NCBI GenBank assembly: GCA_040754495.1
Contig: JBFMCO010000018.1
Location: 1 to 19,893 of the forward strand
From: Candidatus Micrarchaeota archaeon
GTDB taxonomy: Archaea > Micrarchaeota > Micrarchaeia > Anstonellales > Bilamarchaeaceae
Direction: 5' to 3'
Length of the DNA: 19,893 nucleotides
Shown: positions 6,821-16,450 of the stretch, one piece after another
How positions within the stretch are numbered: the first letter of the stretch is position 1
Layout: every line of letters starts with the position of its first letter
Translations under genes and position numbers: made by a program
The notes under the pieces: generated by a model
The model's input: the letters and a program-made list of their open reading frames with translations, nothing else
What the model was told of the DNA's origin: nothing
Databases searched by the model: none

Positions 6821-8245
6821 TTAGTGCCGCCTGTGATTGTGGGGTTCTGTCCTTCCGTGGTAGTCCCCAAGCTCCACGCTCTCCCCGAGCCCTGCGATGT
6901 GCGTCCTGAAGCCGTCCCTCCTCAGCCTCGATTCGAGCTGCATGGCCGACTCGCCCTCCCCGTGCACGATGAATACCTTCTTCGGCCTCCTCCGCATCCT
7001 TCTCAGCCACCGCGCGAGGCCTTCGGCGTCCGCATGGGACGAGAACGCGTCTATGTGGCTGATTTTCGCCTTCACCGCGACTTCGATGCCCATCATGTGC
7101 ACTCTCTTCGCCCCCTCGAGGATTATCCTCCCCAGCGTCCCCTCGGCCTGGTATCCCACGAAGAGCAGGGTGTTCCTGTGGTCCCATAAGTGGTGCTTCA
7201 GGTGGAACTTTATCCTCCCGGCAGTGCACATGCCGTTGCCGGCGATGACTATGCAGGGCTTCCGGTAGTCGTTCAGCGTCTGGGAGTCGTCGATGCTCTT
7301 GAGGAACTTCAGCTTCCTGAATGTGAATGGCGCCTTGAACTCCTTCCTCAGCCCCGGGGAGAAATAGTTCATGTGGGAATTGAACACCCGTGTCGCCTCT
7401 ATGGCGAGCGGGCTGTCCAGGAAGACGTATTCGTACGGCATCTGCCCGTCGCGCTCCATCCGGTGGAGGTAATAGATTATCTCCTGCGTCCTCTCTACCG
7501 CGAAGGACGGTATCATGAGCATCCCGCCGCGCCTGAACGTGTCCTGGACCTCTTTCGCGAGGCGCTCCTGCCGCGAAGCAACGTGGCCGTGCTGCCTGCT
7601 TCCGTACGTGGATTCTATGAGCACGTAGTCCGCGTCGTCTATTATCGCCGGGTCGTCCACGATCGGCGTTCCGCCCTGCCCCATGTCGCCGCTGAAGACG
7701 ATTTTCGAGGTCCTGCCATGCTCCCGCACCGTGACCTCGGCCATCGCTGAGCCGAGTATGTGCCCGGCGTTCCTGAACCTGAGCGTCACGCTGTCGCCGA
7801 GCCTCTGCGGCATCTCATACCCGAGGCGGTGGAAGAAATGGAGCGACCGCTTCACCTCCTGCACGGTGTAGAGCGGCTTCCTCGGCGGCAGGCCCTCCCT
7901 CAGGCGGCGCCGGTTCTCCTGCTCGGTCTCCTCCTTGTTGACGTTCGCGGAGTCCTCGAGCATGATGGTGGCGAGGTCGACCGTGGGCGGAGTCGCGAAT
8001 ATCGAGCCGCGGAAGCCCTCCTTGACCAGCTTCGGAATCAGCCCGCAGTGGTCTATGTGGGCGTGCGTCAGGATGAGGCAGGAAATCCTTTTCGGGTCGA
8101 ACGGGAACCTCTTGTAGTTCAGCTTCGTTATCTCTTTCGGGCCCTGGAACATCCCGCAGTCCACGAGGATCCTCATGCCCGCGGCTTCGAGCAGGTGGCA
8201 TGAGCCCGTGACCATCCCGGCAGCGCCGTTGAAAGTCAGTTTCAT
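6821..8245 (-). CDS. MBL-fold metallo-hydrolase of the beta-CASP family (RNA-processing type)
   Basis: GAAGMVTGSC, VDCGMFQG, THAHIDHCG, AGHILGS, SGDMG, ESTYG, PSFAVERTQE, DSPLA, GYQAEGTLGR, SSHAD, VHGE all intact. Confidence 0.95.
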   Translation of the reverse strand: MKLTFNGAAGMVTGSCHLLEAAGMRILVDCGMFQGPKEITKLNYKRFPFDPKRISCLILTHAHIDHCGLIPKLVKEGFRGSIFATPPTVDLATIMLEDSANVNKEETEQENRRRLREGLPPRKPLYTVQEVKRSLHFFHRLGYEMPQRLGDSVTLRFRNAGHILGSAMAEVTVREHGRTSKIVFSGDMGQGGTPIVDDPAIIDDADYVLIESTYGSRQHGHVASRQERLAKEVQDTFRRGGMLMIPSFAVERTQEIIYYLHRMERDGQMPYEYVFLDSPLAIEATRVFNSHMNYFSPGLRKEFKAPFTFRKLKFLKSIDDSQTLNDYRKPCIVIAGNGMCTAGRIKFHLKHHLWDHRNTLLFVGYQAEGTLGRIILEGAKRVHMMGIEVAVKAKISHIDAFSSHADAEGLARWLRRMRRRPKKVFIVHGEGESAMQLESRLRRDGFRTHIAGLGESVELGDYHGRTEPHNHRRH

Positions 8246-9884: not shown

Positions 9885-10373
9885 ATGGAATTCTCGGTCA
9901 GGAAGGCCGCCCCGGAAGACATGGGAAGGCTCGCGGCCATGTGGCGCGGTCTGATGGGGCACCACCGGAAGCTCGCAAGGAACGTGCAGCAGAAGGAGCA
10001 GGTCGCGGAGGCAAAGGGCGCGGAGGGGAAATGGCGCAGGTGGGCCCGCAAATGGATGCGCTCGCGGGACGGCCTTGTCCTTGTCGCCGAATCGGGCGGA
10101 AAAATAATCGGCTACTCGCTCAACCATGTGAAGGCCAACGTCCCAGTCTACGGGATAAGGAAGCTCGGCCACATGAGCGACCTTTTCGTGGAGGAAGGCT
10201 ACCGCTCGAAGGGAGTCGGAAAGGCGTTCCGGGATGCGGCAGCCGCATGGTTCAGGAAAAAAGGCATGAGTTACGTTTCCATTGCCGCGCATGCGGCGAA
10301 CAGGAAGGCGCAGGCGCTCTATCGCGGGTGGGGCTTCTCGGACTACCACGTAGAGCTGAGGAAGAAGCTGTAA
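9885..10373 (+). CDS. GNAT family N-acetyltransferase
   Basis: VRKAAPED start; LVAESGGKIIGY; motif A LFVEEGYRSKGVGKAF; NRKAQALYRGWGF. Confidence 0.93.
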   Translation: MEFSVRKAAPEDMGRLAAMWRGLMGHHRKLARNVQQKEQVAEAKGAEGKWRRWARKWMRSRDGLVLVAESGGKIIGYSLNHVKANVPVYGIRKLGHMSDLFVEEGYRSKGVGKAFRDAAAAWFRKKGMSYVSIAAHAANRKAQALYRGWGFSDYHVELRKKL

Positions 10374-10469
10374 ATTTTCCCGTCCCGGCCCGCTCCCAGC
10401 TGATTTTATTGGAAAATTTTTCGCAATCATGTGCGCGGTTTTTTATATGCGCCAAGGCCGCGTATGCGC

Positions 10470-11006
10470 ATGCAAGCGCGAAAATTCCGCACGCCCGCCC
10501 GGAATCATGACGCCAGGGCGGAAATGAGGAAATACGAGGTGCTCGCAGATATCGCCGATTCCGGCCTCGCGCTCGCGGCCGCGCGCGCCCTCAACCAGAT
10601 GGTCGGCCAGGCGAAGTCGTTGTTCGAATCCGGCGCGCAGCCTGAAGAGGTGTTCAGGCAATTCGACGTGGAGAAGCTCAGGGCATACATGAGTCTCGAC
10701 AAGTCGCTCGCCGGGGAGCTTCTCAGCCTATACAAGGACAGGAAAGGGGACGAGAAATTCTCCGCATCCGTCCTTGTCGCGACCGCAATCTTCTTCATCA
10801 GCGTCGCCGAGCCGCCCTTTGCCCGGGATATCATTGCAGACCTGGCAAGGCGGGCGAGGAAGGACGAAGGCTTCCGGTATATCGCCAAGATAACGCTGAT
10901 AAGCGTCGCGGAGGTGGCAAGGGGCGTGTCCGAAGAGGCAGGATTCGCGGACGGGGGGCCTGATTCGATCGGGAAAAGCTGCATGGGCATCTTCACCAAA
11001 TTGTGA
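10470..11006 (+). CDS. Hypothetical all-helical protein; preferred start ATG 10470 (alternatives 10464, 10524)
   Basis: TTTTATAT at 10441-10448, 21 nt before ATG 10470; coding-like GC3 bias. Confidence 0.7.
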   Translation: MQARKFRTPARNHDARAEMRKYEVLADIADSGLALAAARALNQMVGQAKSLFESGAQPEEVFRQFDVEKLRAYMSLDKSLAGELLSLYKDRKGDEKFSASVLVATAIFFISVAEPPFARDIIADLARRARKDEGFRYIAKITLISVAEVARGVSEEAGFADGGPDSIGKSCMGIFTKL

Positions 11007-11103
11007 ATTTTCCAATGGAAGACGGGCAGCACCCGGAAAATCCTGCAATATTTTCAGCGAAAGCGCCGCAACCTCTTTATTGCCGGGCGGCGCGTCCGCT
11101 TCC

Positions 11104-11934
11104 ATGCTCCACAAAGCCCCGCGGGGTGGCGCCTCCCCGGGGACAAGCGCGGCAGTCCTGGATTTCGACGGCACGCTCACCGACATAAAGAGGGAGGCAG
11201 GCCCCTTCAGGGAGAGGTACAGGAAGGGGTTCGCGAAGATGATTGGGATGGGCGAAGGCCCCATCGAGCCGCTCTGGGCCGAGGCCGAAAAAAAGATACT
11301 GGGCGACCCGCGGGCTGGCTGGATAATCGGCGGGAAGATTGTCGCACCCGCCTTCCCAGACCCCTACGCATTCGCCACGGCGGCGGCAACGGATGTGCTG
11401 GATGCCCTCGGCATCCTCCTTGACGCGGGGGAGAGGCTGAAAAGGATGGACCTGCTTTTCCATTCGGCCTACGCGGGAGGCGATGTCGCATTCAGGGAAG
11501 GGGCGCGCGATTTCCTGCTCGAGCTGATGGCGCGCACGGAGGTCAGCATAGTGACCAGCTCCGGGACCGCGAGCGTGCTCCGGAAACTGGGGCATCTCGC
11601 CCTTCCATCCTCCCCGCCCGTTTTCGGCAACGCGCAGAAATACCTGGTGGACGGCGCGTGGGACGCTCTCCCGGAGTCATTCTCCCCGCAAGGATACGGA
11701 AGAAGCGTGTTGCTTCGCAGGAGGAAATACTGGGATATCCTGGAGTCCGTGCGCAAGGGGAACCCGCACGAAAAAATCCTCGTGGTGGGTGACATTTACG
11801 AGCTGGACCTCGCGCTCCCGCAGTTCATGGGGATGCGCGTGTGCCTGGCCTCGCGGGACGACACGCCCGCCCATCATATCGCCGCCGCGAACGATTCCGC
11901 CCGGACTTTCGAAGAGGCCCTCAGGCGCGTCTGA
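11104..11934 (+). CDS. HAD-superfamily hydrolase
   Basis: Motif I LDFDGTLTD, motif II IVTSS, motif IV VVGDIYELD; TTTATT at 11076-11081, 22 nt before ATG 11104. Confidence 0.85.
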   Translation: MLHKAPRGGASPGTSAAVLDFDGTLTDIKREAGPFRERYRKGFAKMIGMGEGPIEPLWAEAEKKILGDPRAGWIIGGKIVAPAFPDPYAFATAAATDVLDALGILLDAGERLKRMDLLFHSAYAGGDVAFREGARDFLLELMARTEVSIVTSSGTASVLRKLGHLALPSSPPVFGNAQKYLVDGAWDALPESFSPQGYGRSVLLRRRKYWDILESVRKGNPHEKILVVGDIYELDLALPQFMGMRVCLASRDDTPAHHIAAANDSARTFEEALRRV

Positions 11935-12008
11935 GAGACGAATGGGAAAAATTCCAGCGCATGGATGGCTTCCGTTGGAAATCCTGCAATTATTTCCGTT
12001 TTTTCGCG

Positions 12009-12053
12009 TATAAATTTATATAGGAAAAAACGGCGTACAGATACACGGAGGTG
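12009..12053 (+). promoter_or_regulatory. Promoter and ribosome site of the metallophosphoesterase gene
   Basis: Palindromic TATAAATTTATA at 12009-12020 containing TTTATATA (12015-12022); GGAGGTG at 12047-12053, 6 nt before TTG 12060. Confidence 0.7.
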
Positions 12054-12059
12054 GGCTCG

Positions 12060-14564
12060 TTGGCAGCCGCTAAGGTCCTCTTGCCAGAAAAGCCTGAAAA
12101 GGCTGAGAAGGCGGATAAGAAGCTATTTAGGCCAATGGACTCCCTGGACGAAGCCAGGCGCTCTTTTTCCGGTTTCACTCCCCTTGCGGAGCGGCTAAGG
12201 AGGGATGTGCGCATTCTCTCGATAGGCGAATTCTTCGGGGGGACGATGGCCTTCAACAGCAGGGCGTTCATAGGCGTGTGCTCCATGCTGCGGCAGTCGG
12301 CCGCGGATGGCAAGCCGCCGGACCTGATAGTGATAAACGGCGGTGCCATACCGGAGGTGCCGGCGCGCGGCTCGCGCGCGAACCGCAGGAAGATGGAGTT
12401 CCTCCTCCCCGGCATAGAGGACGCGGACGACGCCTGCGGGCTGATGCGCAGGCCCATGAAGCAGCTCATAGATGCAGCGCGCGGCACGCCGGTCGCATAC
12501 GTCCTTGGCGAGGACGACAAGGCCAACATAGAGATACTCATAGACAGGAAAATCGCCGAGAGCAGGAAAGCCGAGCACCTCCAGGCGCGGATTGAAGGCC
12601 TGAAGGAGGAGGCGAAGGACCTTGATGCCCGCATCGAGAGCATGGACGAGGAGAAGGACTCGCTCGTCCGCGAGCTGCGCAACGCGAAGAAGTCCCTGAA
12701 GAAGCGCGGGGACGGGCGCATCGAGTCGCACATCCGGAAGCAGGCGAAGGAGATACGGGGCATCGCTAAGAAAAGGGACGAGCTCCTGCAGAGGAGGAAG
12801 CGGCTGGAGTCGCGCATCTCCCTCTTCGAGGACGACCTGAACAACCTGGGCGCCGTGCGGCGCACGAACACAGAGTTCCTCACCCCGGCCGAGACGCGGG
12901 AGATGAAGGAGAGCGCGACTAAGGAATACCTTGACCTCCTGCAGCGCCTCTTCGAGGGCGCGGACGTCCGCATCCTGCACGAGAACGTGTCGGTCTTCGA
13001 GCTGGGGGGCCTGCGCGTCGCGGTCGGCCACAGCATGGAGAACACATCGAACACGGCAAAGAAAGGCGCCCTCCCGACAAGGGCGGACGCGCAGTCCAAG
13101 CTCAGGCTCTACGGACTGCTCCCGGCGGTGGACCTGCTCATGTACAGCCACCACCCCGGAACGAAGGGCTGGGCCCTGCCGCAGAGCTTCGCGAGCAGCC
13201 ACCCTCTCTACGTGTTCCAGCAGGGCGGCCTCGCGGACCCGGAAGGACTTTTCGACGCGCACAACCGCGGCATCAAGACGCCGCACACCGAGGCCCTCGA
13301 GAAGCACCCGGTGGATTCGGGGGTGACTATGATAACCGCGCAGGCGGACGGCTCGATGAAATTCGACATGATAGGCCTGAGCCAGCTCGACCAGCTCGCG
13401 AGGCCAGCCCTCGCGTACGAGCACAACGTCCTCCGGAGCCGCGTGGAAGACGGGCTGAAGGAGGCCGACGACAAGCCCGCACCCCAATCCCTGCTGGAGC
13501 TCCCCTCGCGCCTGCAGGACGGCCAGCTATCGGCCGTCATGACGCAGCGCGACTTGCAGAAGCTTTTCATGCCGCCGGCGAGGCGGAAGATACGCGAGCT
13601 GATAGCCGAGATATACAGCGACCACCATATCGGCATCGGGAACCCATGGGACGCGCGCTCCAACCAGGAAATCATGAAGGCAGAGATTGCAGACAGCGAG
13701 GAGCAGGGCCTCCCGGACATCATCATATTCGGCGGCGACATGGTCGAAGGCGCTCTCGGCTCCAAGCTCAACGAATGGAACGCGAGGAACTTCGTTGACG
13801 AGGAGGAGTTCGCGAGGCATCTTGCGGAAATGGCCACAAAGGGCCCAGGGCTGAAGCAGGCGGACATCGACCGGGCCATGCTGGAATACTTCCGGAGGAG
13901 GGCCTACGCGTACAACGTCCCGAACGTCGACCAGCAGGTGAACCTGCTCCTCCCTCTCCTCGAGCATGCGGCGAAGGTCGTCGCTAAAGGCGGCGAGGCG
14001 ATATTCATCTCCGGCAACCACTACAACCAGACGCACCGGGGCGAGGTCTTCGACGAGGCCATCCGCATGGCCGCGGCCGTGCGCATGATAGGCGGCTTCC
14101 CGGAGAACGACCCGCGCATACACATCTTCTACGGCGGCTGGATAGGCAGCGGGCAGGTTACCGTCAAGGGCATACCCATGTTCGGCATACACAAGGCAGG
14201 AAGGCCCTCGCGCGACCACGTGAGCGGCCAGATGGAGCAGCGGACCCTCCAGCGGAGGGAGGATGCGTTCCTGCACGTGCAGGGGCACCACCACGACATG
14301 ACCTTCGGCAAGACGCTCTCTGACGCCCATGTGAGCGCGCCATCCATCGCGCCGATCATCCCGTATGTGGACCAGGCGGCGCTGCACGGGGGCCTCCAGG
14401 GATACACGCGTCTTTCCCTCTATGTGGACCAGGACGGGAAGCACCTCGAGAGCATGGGCGTGCTGAACCGCTTCCTGCCGCAGCTGGAGAAGTATCTGCC
14501 GAAGATAGACCCGCTCTACCTTGACGTATTCAGGAAGATGGTGAAAAAGGGGGCCGGCAGCTAG
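12060..14564 (+). CDS. Tandem calcineurin-like metallophosphoesterase: degenerate N-domain with coiled-coil insertion plus intact C-domain
   Basis: C-domain SDHH, GGDMVEG, SGNH, GIH, QGHHH; N-domain equivalents SIGE, INGG, LGEDD, VGH, YSHH; heptad-rich region about 12561-12848. Confidence 0.85.
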   Translation: MAAAKVLLPEKPEKAEKADKKLFRPMDSLDEARRSFSGFTPLAERLRRDVRILSIGEFFGGTMAFNSRAFIGVCSMLRQSAADGKPPDLIVINGGAIPEVPARGSRANRRKMEFLLPGIEDADDACGLMRRPMKQLIDAARGTPVAYVLGEDDKANIEILIDRKIAESRKAEHLQARIEGLKEEAKDLDARIESMDEEKDSLVRELRNAKKSLKKRGDGRIESHIRKQAKEIRGIAKKRDELLQRRKRLESRISLFEDDLNNLGAVRRTNTEFLTPAETREMKESATKEYLDLLQRLFEGADVRILHENVSVFELGGLRVAVGHSMENTSNTAKKGALPTRADAQSKLRLYGLLPAVDLLMYSHHPGTKGWALPQSFASSHPLYVFQQGGLADPEGLFDAHNRGIKTPHTEALEKHPVDSGVTMITAQADGSMKFDMIGLSQLDQLARPALAYEHNVLRSRVEDGLKEADDKPAPQSLLELPSRLQDGQLSAVMTQRDLQKLFMPPARRKIRELIAEIYSDHHIGIGNPWDARSNQEIMKAEIADSEEQGLPDIIIFGGDMVEGALGSKLNEWNARNFVDEEEFARHLAEMATKGPGLKQADIDRAMLEYFRRRAYAYNVPNVDQQVNLLLPLLEHAAKVVAKGGEAIFISGNHYNQTHRGEVFDEAIRMAAAVRMIGGFPENDPRIHIFYGGWIGSGQVTVKGIPMFGIHKAGRPSRDHVSGQMEQRTLQRREDAFLHVQGHHHDMTFGKTLSDAHVSAPSIAPIIPYVDQAALHGGLQGYTRLSLYVDQDGKHLESMGVLNRFLPQLEKYLPKIDPLYLDVFRKMVKKGAGS

Positions 14565-16201
14565 GCCGGCTCCGCCTCGAACTTCTCGAGCCCTCCGTCC
14601 CCGAAGACGAGGGAAACGTCGTAGTCCGTCCCCCGGTACTCGAACGAATCGCCGTCCTCGACCTCGAACTCGTCCCCGTCCACCTCGAAGGTCAGGAGAA
14701 GCCCGGCCGTATCGACATCGACAATCTCCGCGTCCGTCCCGAACAGCTTGAATTTTTTCCCGTCCAGGTTGAGCCCGGAGGACTCGGTGTCGAGGTACGG
14801 ATAGAACTCCGCGACGTATGAGTCGTATTCCTCTATATCGTCCGGGCACACCGGGTTGTCGGTCCAGTCCTCGACTAGCCCTGCCTGGGAATAGAACTGG
14901 ACGGCGTAATACTCGTCCACGGTCAGCTCCACGGAGTCCGTGCTGTTGTCTGACGAATCCAGCGTTACCTGCACCACGTTCTCGCCGCAGAAGTCGTCGT
15001 CGGTGTCGCCCTCGTCGAGAGTGAAGCTGCACAGCTCGTCGTCGTCCTTCCAGTCGGCATAGTTCTCGTAGAGGCGGAACGTGGTAGAGTTCGCGCCTAC
15101 AAGATGGGCTTTCATGATGAAGTTGTCGTTCAGCTCTACCGCGCCGCCCTCGTAGAGCGTCAGCGCGTCGGACTCGTCGAAGGCCGCTATCTGGTATCTC
15201 TCGTCCTCGACGTCCACGTCCGTTTCGTTATTGACGCAGTTTACCTCCCTGCATTTGCCGTCGAAGCACTCCCTTCCGGTGCCGCAGGCTATCTTTTCGT
15301 TCGCTATGGACGACTCGGTAGCGCAGAAGTATTCCAGCACGGTCGTGTCGCTGTAGCAGCTGTCGGTGTTCGTCTTGTCCTCGAAGGAGGACGTGCCCTT
15401 CGTGAACTGGTCCTTGCCCTTGTCCGAGTCCACGCACACATTCTTCACGCACTCCCCGCCGCTGCAGGAGAATCCGCTCCCGCATGGGATGAGCTGGCTC
15501 TTCGTCGCGTTCCCGTCGCAGTAGTATTCCTGCACCGAGGCCGTCCCCTGGCACGAGTCCTGGAAGGCGTCATCGCCTTTGGTCACGGTGCCCTTCTCGG
15601 ATGCGTTCTTGCCCCCGTCGCTGTCGGCGCACGGGCTGTCCCTGCACGCCCCGGAGACGCATTCCCTTCCCGGGCCGCACGATATGTCATCGGACGCTGC
15701 AATGCCCCCTTCGCAGAAGTATTCGGTCACGGAATCGCTGTCGGCGCATTCGTCCGTCTGGCTCCTTCCGGACGCTTCAACGGTCCCGCGCGCCTCCCTG
15801 TCCTTTCCGCCGTCGCTGTCCGTGCAGGGCGATTTCACGCACGCGCCGCCCGAGCAGACGTACCCGGCCGGGCAGGGCAGGTCATCGCCCGCCGCCCGCC
15901 TCCCGTCGCAATACGCTTCGGAAACAGTCCCCGCATCCTTGCAGGTATCCAGGACCTCGCCCTCGCGGTCGGTCACCGAGCCCGCCGTGAACGTGTCCTT
16001 CCCGCCGTCGGAATCGGAGCAGGCAAGGCACGCACCCTTGCTTTTCACCTGGGCTCCCGCCTGCTGCGCGTGGCACGCGCTCGGGTAGGTGACATCATCC
16101 GACCCGCACACGGGGTCGTTCACGTCCGGACAACCGCCCACGGCGAGGCAGCCGGATAAAAACAAAATCGCCAACACAGGAACAGCGAGGAACGCTTTCA
16201 T
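14561..16201 (-). CDS. Surface lipoprotein: Kazal domain, four Cys-rich DSDGG repeats, acidic C-terminal domain
   Basis: LFLSGC lipobox; CPDVNDPVCGSDDVTYPSAC...GAC; four 65-66-aa repeats; TTTAATAAA 20 nt before ATG 16201; stop overlaps the convergent gene at CTAG. Confidence 0.88.
   Translation of the reverse strand: MKAFLAVPVLAILFLSGCLAVGGCPDVNDPVCGSDDVTYPSACHAQQAGAQVKSKGACLACSDSDGGKDTFTAGSVTDREGEVLDTCKDAGTVSEAYCDGRRAAGDDLPCPAGYVCSGGACVKSPCTDSDGGKDREARGTVEASGRSQTDECADSDSVTEYFCEGGIAASDDISCGPGRECVSGACRDSPCADSDGGKNASEKGTVTKGDDAFQDSCQGTASVQEYYCDGNATKSQLIPCGSGFSCSGGECVKNVCVDSDKGKDQFTKGTSSFEDKTNTDSCYSDTTVLEYFCATESSIANEKIACGTGRECFDGKCREVNCVNNETDVDVEDERYQIAAFDESDALTLYEGGAVELNDNFIMKAHLVGANSTTFRLYENYADWKDDDELCSFTLDEGDTDDDFCGENVVQVTLDSSDNSTDSVELTVDEYYAVQFYSQAGLVEDWTDNPVCPDDIEEYDSYVAEFYPYLDTESSGLNLDGKKFKLFGTDAEIVDVDTAGLLLTFEVDGDEFEVEDGDSFEYRGTDYDVSLVFGDGGLEKFEAEPA
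15239..16021 (-). repeat. Four tandem 65-66-aa coding repeats CxDSD(G/K)GK...G.....D.C.....V.E.(Y/F)C...C..G..C..G.C
   Basis: Six Cys per unit at conserved spacing; units start at aa 66, 131, 196, 261 of the ORF-track translation. Confidence 0.9.
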
Positions 16202-16450
16202 GCAGCGAAACCGCACCTGAATTTATTAAATCTTGCTGATTTTTGCGGGGTCGCGTCTGCCTCCACATCGGACTAGCTCTGGCCTCAATAACGCCTCCAG
16301 GCCGCCTTCCATCCGCTGATTTTCACCAGGCGGAAGCCGAACCATCCAGCCCTGCGAGGCAGTCCCTTACTATAATAAAGGGCATCATGGCGCGGCATGC
16401 GCAGGCGCCCCCTCCCATCTTTTTTAATTGTTGGCCGCCAAATGCGCTCC

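Follow-up and report, generated by a model that had tools for sequence, protein, structure and literature searches.

Results

The window, a stretch of 19,893 nucleotides from a groundwater Micrarchaeota genome (DPANN), carries on its plus strand the gene of a tandem dead/live metallophosphoesterase (MPE; 12060..14564), which was delimited by the ORF call, an SD-like motif and homologue alignment. The 5' limit of the ORF is either GTG 12051 or TTG 12060 and its end is 14564, giving a product of 837 or 834 aa, respectively. The SD-like GGAGGTG is located at 12045-12051 and TTG 12060 begins 8 nt downstream; the alignment with P0002, a database protein of 97% identity, starts at residue 4, which is codon 12060, and the ESM Atlas record of the tandem phosphoesterase starts at the same residue. 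TTG 12060 is thus the likelier start codon, and residue numbers are counted here from GTG 12051. The product is a cytoplasmic protein of two lobes, and the gene does not differ in GC content from the genome around it. Of the words sampled from the stretch, 14-24% occur in three groundwater DNA runs of one study.

Directly upstream lies a HAD-family hydrolase gene (11104..11934, plus strand), the product of which has a DFDGT motif, weak Pfam support and, in an Atlas record beginning at residue 9 (score 0.97), TM values of 0.76-0.79 to HAD clusters; structurally it resembles YjjG-type nucleotidases (TM 0.58-0.64). An operator-like 18-mer, AAATCCTGCAATTATTTC, at 11979..11996 upstream of the putative phosphoesterase promoter has a second copy upstream of the HAD gene at 11038-11055 (direct repeat D1, 89% identity), and a similar palindrome, GGAAATACTTTGCAATAATTTCC, was found upstream of the orthologue in L002. 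An AT-rich palindrome with a TATA-like box (TATAAATTTATATA, 11996..12033), the inverted repeat I1 with 19-nt arms of 84% complementarity, is situated ~30 nt before the start codon and may function as a promoter.

The initial annotation had proposed that the phosphoesterase and the HAD gene form a system. This pairing holds within one genus, where the HAD gene is adjacent, co-oriented and upstream in all four phosphoesterase-carrying genomes (orthologues in L001, L002 and L005) and the pair stays together amid shuffled surrounding genes, but it does not extend to the family: no HAD-like neighbour was found at the other 22 family loci, and no neighbour of any kind is conserved across the 26 loci. 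Two genus members in which the phosphoesterase was not found have HAD homologues as well, more distant ones. In genus members lacking the gene, the gene order beside the beta-CASP orthologue is unconserved, and no clean insertion or deletion can be read there.

An AlphaFold2 model built with 99 relatives reached pLDDT 92.7 and pTM 0.90, superseding a first model from an 11-sequence alignment (pLDDT 68), the Foldseek E-values of which were all >1e-3. Both lobes match solved structures of the two-sheet beta-sandwich MPE fold (Z 13-19 over 165-250 residues), and Foldseek returned Rv0805, DP1 and Mre11 with probability 1.00. When the profiles of the two lobes were compared by hhalign, they aligned over 252 columns with a probability of 96.3% and E 1.5e-9, statistically far above chance, in a register that pairs E60 with D524, F62 with H526, G98 with D563, E154/D155 with N656/H657, H327 with H714 and H367 with H746. 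Judged by this profile alignment, the two lobes are homologous and originated by internal duplication of a calcineurin-like MPE domain. A degenerate and an intact calcineurin-like domain in tandem had been claimed from the letters alone, with a different fold of the N-terminal half as the outcome that would speak against it; the recommended AlphaFold and Foldseek analysis bears the claim out, and the modelled N lobe (22-447) matches PolD DP1 best of all (5ihe_A, Z 18.8, 250 residues, 3.7 A).

The C lobe, an intact metallophosphoesterase domain (residues 513-815, 13587..14495, plus strand), contains all five MPE motifs in their usual order (DxH, GD, GNH, H, GHxH), namely D524-x-H526, GD563, GN656H657, H714 and GH746-x-H748, together with the family-invariant E669 and Q629. 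All the metal ligands that the initial annotation had listed are present, and D524, H526, D563, N656, H657, H714, H746 and H748 are invariant among 11 close homologues. Across 99 members, H657, H714 and H748 are found in 99 each, D524 in 97, H526 in 92, N656 in 89, D563 in 73 (with E in 26) and H746 in 59 (with D in 39). With this complete two-metal site, the C lobe is predicted to be the catalytic part. Its motifs have variants of their own, GNHY rather than GNH[D/E] for motif III and GDxxE rather than GDxxD for motif II.

The N lobe is interrupted by the arm described below. Its first half (residues 25-153, 12123..12509, plus strand) leads through the degenerate motifs I (GE60), II (NGG98) and III (GED155), and its second half (residues 265-447, 12843..13391, plus strand) retains H327 at the motif IV position and H367 at the motif V position. 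The strings SIGE (57-60), NGG (96-98), GEDD (153-156), GH (326-327) and SHH (366-368), which had been read as remnants of the metal motifs, do occur at these positions and fall in hhalign register with the motifs of the C domain. The lobe has lost four ligand positions, one of them the bridging Asp, and is nearly as conserved as the catalytic one: identity among orthologues is 59-65% for the N lobe, with 65% in its second half, near the 68% of the C lobe, and drops to 37%, the lowest of all regions, in the helical interdomain linker. This linker (residues 448-512, 13392..13586, plus strand), delimited by model secondary structure, has at 484-488 a conserved short motif, LPS(E/R)L, with P485 and S486 being the majority residues in 55/99 and 53/99 members, respectively. 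A C-terminal helical tail (residues 816-837, 14496..14561, plus strand; model helix 821-835) follows the C lobe, and its consensus, DPLFLEIF-KMVKK, is conserved in close homologues.

The arm is an antiparallel helical hairpin (residues 154-264, 12510..12842, plus strand) formed in the pLDDT 92.7 model by helices 154-219 and 222-264, with KKRGDG (217-222) at the turn, and it sits between what correspond to motifs III and IV in the N domain. The place and turn given by the initial annotation for a heptad insert were therefore right, but the insert is ~110 residues long, not ~95. The arm exits the N lobe exactly at the former GNH loop and therefore stands on the former active-site face. Its base is near invariant (D156 in 95/99 and N159 in 93/99 members), and the sequence of its tip is unconserved in close homologues. 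Insert length across the family ranges from 86 to 311 aa and net charge from -32 to +17, and this spread of charge argues against a general DNA-binding rod. The tandem protein has two Cys, C77 and C129, and none in the arm.

The tandem family comprises ~100 full-length relatives of 780-1150 aa and >100 cluster representatives, with a closer set of ten full-length homologues at 41-97% identity and a mean column identity of 12% over 99 members. Searches of the Pfam, NCBIfam and PDB sequence libraries with the single protein and with the 11-sequence profile gave only coiled-coil noise, and in Pfam the tandem protein had no match even at E <= 1. Among 50 family members, 12 match Pfam Metallophos at E <= 0.001 (best 1.2e-10) and two carry an HTH_8 domain; P0082, a single-domain relative, scores 26.7 bits for Metallophos against a gathering cut-off of 21.5. 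DP1 was the sole non-coiled-coil sequence match of the family profile in the PDB (E 0.0043), and marginal PHROGs matches to 'DNA repair exonuclease' were found for relatives only. The tandem family, unnamed and uncharacterised, brings a new architecture to a known superfamily: in agreement with the earlier reading, no family in the Pfam, NCBIfam and PDB libraries searched covers the protein, and a full-length match to a characterised family, which would have contradicted that reading, did not appear there.

The gene is patchily distributed. It is carried by 4 of the ~33 members of its genus and by 48 of 301 genomes across the phylum, and in two other families by 25 of 74 and 21 of 54 genomes; a search of the 32 other genus members came up without it in 29. 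The advised survey of distribution and conserved neighbours thus yielded ~100 relatives with a patchy spread but no family-wide neighbour. Two divergent copies, L001 and L004, occur within one genome. The tandem gene is an accessory gene, not a core replication or repair gene. DPANN genomes are tiny, and an accessory gene of ~2.5 kb that persists in them is therefore likely to be useful.

Discussion

On balance, we are inclined to read the tandem protein as a metal-dependent phosphodiesterase, probably a nuclease, with the pseudo-enzyme lobe and the arm as its scaffold. The catalytic C lobe would use Mn2+, Fe2+ or a metal like these to cleave phosphodiester bonds; its target would most probably be nucleic acid, attacked in the manner of a DP1/Mre11-type exo- or endonuclease, and the dead lobe and the arm might act as a fixed scaffold on which a partner protein docks or through which the protein associates with itself. 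Fold and architecture we regard as solid, and the function we infer. Points counted toward a nuclease are the viral MPE matches, what is reported of the Bxb1 protein, the YonJ alignment and the HTH_8 domain in 2/50 members, all discussed below or given above; points counted against the reading as a whole are the nearly equal scores of nuclease and small-molecule phosphodiesterase folds (Rv0805, MJ0936, GpdQ), the charge spread of the arm, the GNHY/GDxxE motifs and the confinement of the HAD pairing to a narrow clade.

The C lobe shares its fold and five motifs with Mre11/SbcD, MJ0936, Rv0805, YfcE and GpdQ (Foldseek 1e-5 to 1e-4). Its best structural matches by VIA were 1s3l/MJ0936 (Z 14.8), 3av0/Mre11 (Z 14.1), 3dsd/Mre11 (Z 13.9), 7dog/SbcD (Z 13.6) and 3ib7 (Z 12.9), and Foldseek placed Rv0805 at 1.3e-5, DP1 at 3.2e-5 and Mre11 at 4.1e-5. 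It differs from Mre11/SbcD and the small MPEs by the GDxxEG and GNHYN motif variants and by an additional helical insert of ~80 residues between motifs II and III. The protein could also be a small-molecule phosphodiesterase of the Rv0805/CpdA/GpdQ/MJ0936 type, acting on cyclic (oligo)nucleotides or similar diesters under the control of a regulatory dead lobe and arm, with the HAD protein as a nucleotidase that converts NMP to nucleoside. Rv0805 as the top Foldseek match in the PDB, MJ0936 as the best VIA match, with all 165 residues of its chain aligned at 2.5 A, and the likeness of the HAD neighbour to YjjG-type nucleotidases are in line with such an enzyme. Yet DP1, Mre11 and SbcD follow within ~1 Z unit, the viral proteins nearest to it are MPEs associated with replication, the 26 family loci have no cyclase or sensor gene conserved in their vicinity, and an arm of 90-310 residues with a second lobe would be unusual for a small-molecule phosphodiesterase, so we consider this reading rather unlikely.

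Among the structural matches of the N lobe, the first four are DP1 and the B-subunits of Pol delta (p50/Pol31) and Pol epsilon (Dpb2), at Z 12.9-18.8: after DP1 come p50 (3e0j_A, Z 17.3), Pol31 (6p1h_B, Z 15.2) and 6hv8_B (Z 12.9). With the eukaryotic B-subunits the N lobe has in common an MPE fold in which the metal site has degenerated but is still conserved. These subunits are the classic dead MPEs, and the archaeal chain displays the same fold decaying beside an intact copy; regulated or scaffolded nucleases have repeatedly been built by fusing a pseudo-enzyme lobe to a live enzyme. One might therefore suppose a polymerase accessory factor, the dead lobe of which docks, in the way of eukaryotic B-subunits, on the C-terminal domain of a polymerase or primase and supplies the replisome with a second nuclease for proofreading or primer removal, as would also suit the weak sequence match of the family profile to DP1. 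However, the genome has a separate DP1-like gene (493 aa, intact motifs) as well as DP2 and PolB, the tandem gene did not turn up in the majority of the genus members searched, it is unlinked to any replication gene, with DP2 on another contig, and a whole-genome search (G000) with PF04042 gave no match, the tandem gene included. We hold this reading to be extremely improbable. DP1 itself has one active lobe, whereas the tandem protein adds a second, active lobe and the inserted helical arm to the degenerate one. Replacement of DP1 by the tandem protein is rejected because the genome carries its own DP1-like gene.

The arm (160-274) superposes on antiparallel hairpins of CT398, HP0958 and the Rad50 rod (6zff) with Z 11-12.4 and rmsd 1.6-3.7 A, values of Z that are common for long helices, and with none of the three does it have a sequence relation. 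The LSD1 tower is a further structural match, likewise unrelated in sequence, and it is also inserted in a catalytic-type domain. The tower domain of LSD1 is a docking platform for CoREST.

The arm matches include the Rad50 rod, the C lobe has Mre11 and SbcD among its best matches, and a chain with two MPE lobes is reminiscent of the Mre11 dimer. We also weighed, on these grounds, an ATP-free, single-chain analogue of an Mre11 dimer with a Rad50 arm, in which a DNA end would be clamped by the lobes and the arm, by tethering or dimerising, would bridge ends in double-strand-break repair. This we find very unlikely. The chain has no ATPase head and the arm no zinc hook, its tip is unconserved, the N lobe is closer to DP1 and the B-subunits than to Mre11, the gene is dispensable within the genus, and an Mre11-like and a Rad50-like gene exist separately in the genome. 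The match to the Mre11/SbcD fold covers the catalytic core, and no capping domain was made out; the catalytic lobe has a pseudo-lobe fused to it instead of forming a homodimer, it has no Rad50/SbcC partner, and no Rad50-like gene adjoins the tandem phosphoesterase gene. Replacement of Mre11/Rad50 is rejected because both genes are present in the genome. A Rad50/SMC ATPase was rejected too: there is no ABC ATPase head, zinc hook or hinge, and the matches are to coiled coils only, with the NCBIfam SMC and Rad50 matches confined to residues 156-305 and far below cut-off.

In BFVD, the nearest viral structures (E 1e-8) belong to phage MPEs that carry the annotation DNA polymerase II small subunit or exonuclease. 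The recombination directionality factor of Bxb1 is a phage calcineurin-like MPE with Mre11 and DP1 as its top structural matches, and it is reported to be needed for the phage to replicate its DNA and to be a weak 3'-5' exonuclease (PMC11795197); it is absent from the nearest viral structures that we obtained. SPbeta YonJ aligned with the C-lobe profile end to end (probability 72%, E 3.5e-5), sharing with it GDxHxG, (G/A)DxVEG, (G/A)NH, H and H-x-H. YonJ (PF27386 YonJ_N and PF27387 YonJ_CC in Pfam 38.1) differs in having one MPE domain only and a helical region that is N-terminal to this domain rather than inserted. YonJ-family clusters were listed in the Atlas, where a 678-aa phage cluster aligns over both lobes (TM 0.54/0.65, 519 residues), and the YonJ-like and other phage MPEs have no BLAST-level similarity to the tandem protein. 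We found nothing relevant in the literature on YonJ or on a Micrarchaeota phosphoesterase.

With phage proteins as nearest structural relatives, a patchy and accessory distribution (4/~33, 25/74 and 21/54 genomes), very fast divergence and two divergent copies in one genome, the tandem protein might be the effector of a conflict system, either in antiviral defence or as a viral or mobile-element legacy, in which a nuclease restrained by the dead lobe and the arm is released by a signal. We think this decidedly unlikely, as PADLOC-DB 2.0 gave only coiled-coil matches (LmuB, DndD and JetC; residues 151-305, E 1e-4 to 7e-3) and none for the neighbour genes, no partner genes are conserved across the 26 loci, GC content does not depart from that of the genome, no mobile-element genes were seen directly beside the gene, and no relatives were found by a pattern scan of IMG/VR viral contigs or by tblastn of P0001, P0024 and P0082 against 50,697 phage genomes.

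Under the favoured reading of a scaffolded phosphodiesterase, the putatively co-regulated HAD phosphatase may act in the four-genome clade on phosphomonoester products, either termini or nucleotides. A more far-reaching proposal is that the family is an ATP-independent, DPANN-specific nucleic-acid machine derived from a phage replication-type DP1/YonJ-like nuclease, in which the dead lobe and the arm would recruit the live nuclease to a replisome or repair partner or, in the clade, to the HAD protein and a 191-aa helical protein (10431-11006). We regard it as unlikely, and if true it would amount to an end-processing or conflict module of a new kind. Assaying substrates would bring annotation to the whole family, >100 sequence clusters with no name and no model in the Pfam copy searched, and could shed light on the processing of nucleic acids or nucleotides in DPANN archaea.

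Gene, family and tandem architecture

The tandem phosphoesterase is encoded by a single long forward-strand ORF running from GTG 12051 (from which residues are numbered) or TTG 12060 to 14564. The start is taken as 12060, because GGAGGTG lies 8 nt 5' of this TTG, the database protein P0002 (97% identical) aligns from residue 4, which is the codon at 12060, and the ESM Atlas record opens at that residue too. About 30 nt upstream of the start is an AT-rich palindrome that contains a TATA-like box. DNA of the window is also present in groundwater metagenomes, and none of the runs listed for it was of RNA.

The initial annotation recognised no named family for this protein, and indeed none in Pfam, NCBIfam or the PDB sequence libraries covers it, as searches there returned only coiled-coil noise at residues 130-310; PADLOC gave nothing specific. 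Ten full-length homologues (815-867 aa, 41-97% identity) were identified by word-indexed search, one of them named as from Candidatus Micrarchaeota archaeon. A profile built from these ten and the window protein was searched against 1.84 billion cluster representatives and matched 136 proteins at E <= 1e-3, 43 of them at E <= 1e-30, the majority being 780-1150 aa long and aligned across both halves. In the 99-member full-length alignment G655, H657, E669, H714 and H748 are invariant, while D524, H526, G528 and Q629, together with G75, P101, D156 and N159 of the N half, are conserved in >90% of members. Pfam Metallophos was matched by 12 of 50 members at E <= 0.001 (best E 1.2e-10) and Metallophos_2 by 7, HTH_8 was present in 2, and a 337-aa single-domain relative scored above the Metallophos gathering cut-off. 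This transitive sequence evidence, together with the motifs, places the C half in the calcineurin-like superfamily.

AlphaFold2 with eleven sequences gave a mediocre model (pLDDT 68), and with 99 sequences a mean pLDDT of 92.7 and pTM of 0.90. Exhaustive comparison of the model with 48,161 PDB representatives resolved three parts. The N lobe (residues 22-447) matched PolD DP1 (5ihe_A, Z 18.8, 250 residues, 3.7 A), Pol delta p50 (3e0j_A, Z 17.3), Pol31 (6p1h_B, Z 15.2) and Dpb2 (6hv8_B, Z 12.9), and these DP1/B-subunit matches bear out the calcineurin-like fold proposed for the N half. The C lobe (residues 513-815) matched MJ0936 (1s3l, Z 14.8, all 165 residues, 2.5 A), Mre11 (3av0, 3dsd and 3qg5, Z 13.8-14.1) and SbcD (7dog, Z 13.6), with further matches to LpxH, Vps29 and Rv0805. 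The arm (residues 160-274) resembled the antiparallel helical hairpins of CT398, HP0958 and the Rad50 rod (Z 11-12.4) and, in a separate comparison, the LSD1 tower. Foldseek against the PDB gave probability 1.00 for Rv0805, DP1, Mre11 and purple acid phosphatases (E 1e-5 to 1e-4). The tandem architecture of one dead and one live metallophosphoesterase (MPE) lobe is real and well supported.

The dead lobe and the helical arm

The family alignment was split into N-core columns, with the arm taken out, and C-lobe columns, and the two profiles compared by hhalign aligned end to end over 252 columns (probability 96.3%, E 1.5e-9), which identifies the lobes as products of an internal duplication. 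In this register E60 corresponds to D524, F62 to H526, G98 to D563, G153-E154-D155 to G655-N656-H657, H327 to H714 and S366-H367 to G745-H746, confirming that the N domain has kept the motif order and lost most metal ligands. The motif I His, the motif II bridging Asp, the motif III Asn and His and the second motif V His are gone, and the N lobe cannot form a canonical two-metal site. An acid occupies the motif I Asp position in 83 of the 99 members (E or D), and H327 and H367 are kept in 52 and 74, respectively. The near-invariant D156 and N159 lie off the ligand positions and on the first turn of the arm-forming helix, and for this reason we infer that they form an N-cap fixing the arm base. 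Between orthologues, identity is 59-65% in the dead lobe, 68% in the live lobe, 51% in the arm and 37% in the linker, so the dead lobe, with an identity close to that of the live one, evolves under strong constraint.

The arm emerges at the old GNH loop of the N lobe, on the former substrate face. Its length varies from 86 to 311 residues across the family (median 173), the window protein standing close to the short end, and its net charge spans -32 to +17 (+5 in the window protein). The tip shows no conservation, and a zinc hook is absent, since the whole protein has only two cysteines, both outside the arm. A spacer or protein-docking element fits these features better than a general DNA-binding rod.

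Phage relatives and putative function

BLAST-level relatives were not found in phage or viral-contig collections, and the closest viral structures were phage MPEs in the Atlas and in the viral structure set BFVD (BFVD E 1e-8), often annotated as 'DNA polymerase II small subunit' or 'exonuclease'. The Atlas matches include clusters of the YonJ family, as well as one phage cluster of 678 aa that aligned across both lobes (TM 0.54/0.65). The MPE domain of SPbeta YonJ (residues 135-405) could be aligned from end to end to the profile of the C lobe (probability 72%, E 3.5e-5), all five motifs being in register; however, the helical region of YonJ is N-terminal, whereas the arm of the tandem phosphoesterase is inserted in the dead lobe. 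The recombination directionality factor of phage Bxb1, a separate calcineurin-like MPE with Mre11 and DP1 as its top structural matches, is reported to be required for replication of the phage DNA and to have weak 3'-5' exonuclease activity (PMC11795197); it was absent from the BFVD matches. It is mainly this separate phage MPE, as indirect evidence, that makes us lean towards a nuclease. We propose that the C lobe would act as a metal-dependent phosphodiesterase, probably a nuclease, with the constrained dead lobe and the arm serving as a scaffold or docking platform, and that the protein may, within the genus clade, be linked in function to the HAD phosphatase. None of the results supports the sensing and gating role that the initial annotation suggested for the dead lobe and arm.

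Distribution and gene neighbourhood

Phosphoesterase matches were found in 48 of 301 phylum genomes (a 300-genome sample plus the window's own assembly), clustered in two families (25/74 and 21/54 genomes) with one further elsewhere. Carriers in the window's genus are this assembly and three other genomes, namely those of loci L001/L004, L002 and L005, among about 33 searched. This patchy presence with few genus carriers indicates that the gene is accessory. One carrier MAG holds two divergent copies (loci L001 and L004), 63% and 41% identical to the window protein; one TGA was flagged inside the match of its second copy. The window's assembly has its own 493-aa DP1-like gene with intact motifs, and DP2, PolB, Mre11-like and Rad50-like genes, and since all are encoded separately, the tandem phosphoesterase as a stand-in for any of them is ruled out. 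The PolD DP2 match (C22:54075-54884) lies within a 1636-aa open frame, long for DP2, which may hold an intein or extension.

A HAD hydrolase gene (11104-11934, +) is directly upstream on the same strand in 4/4 genus-level carriers, its assignment being based on a DFDGT motif, sub-threshold Pfam matches and strong Atlas matches (0.97, TM 0.76-0.79). The pair is intact despite shuffled surroundings, which include Kazal-like, beta-CASP paralogue, secreted and 191-aa helical proteins. Across 26 family loci, on the other hand, every neighbour cluster is limited to six loci or fewer, and no HAD-like gene was found at the loci outside the genus clade. Of the suggested system with the HAD gene, the pairing within the genus thus stands, at most as a clade-level association, and the wider link falls away. 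Two members of the genus that gave no phosphoesterase match carry weaker HAD homologues.

The 18-mer AAATCCTGCAAT(T)ATTTC, a near-repeat with GGAAAT...ATTTCC arms, lies 5' of both the HAD gene (11038-11055) and the phosphoesterase gene (11979-11996), and looks like a shared operator. A similar palindrome is found 5' of the orthologue in locus L002 (about 7870-7895). Shorter GGAAA(N)TTCC words are repeated in intergenic regions of loci L001 and L005.

Upstream of the HAD gene, a 191-aa protein (10431-11006, +) has no family match; its homologues (34-37% identity) lie directly downstream of the phosphoesterase in L005 and nearby in L001, and the local gene group may include this protein as a third member. 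A 551-aa protein (14561-16216, -), which carries a Kazal-type motif (E 1.4e-6) at its N terminus and contains internal repeats, has homologues near the phosphoesterase in L003, L004 and L005, at differing positions. The beta-CASP/RMMBL nuclease (6821-8245, -) is a third paralogue present in only part of the genus: orthologues sharing 60-81% identity were found in 13 of 30 genomes, whereas paralogues of 30-34% are universal. In L001 and L002 it directly adjoins the HAD-phosphoesterase pair. A 162-aa GNAT acetyltransferase (9885-10373, +; Pfam E 4.8e-13) is masked by longer spurious ORFs on both strands of GC-rich DNA, and GC is 43-49% at positions 1-2700 against 58-65% elsewhere in the window.
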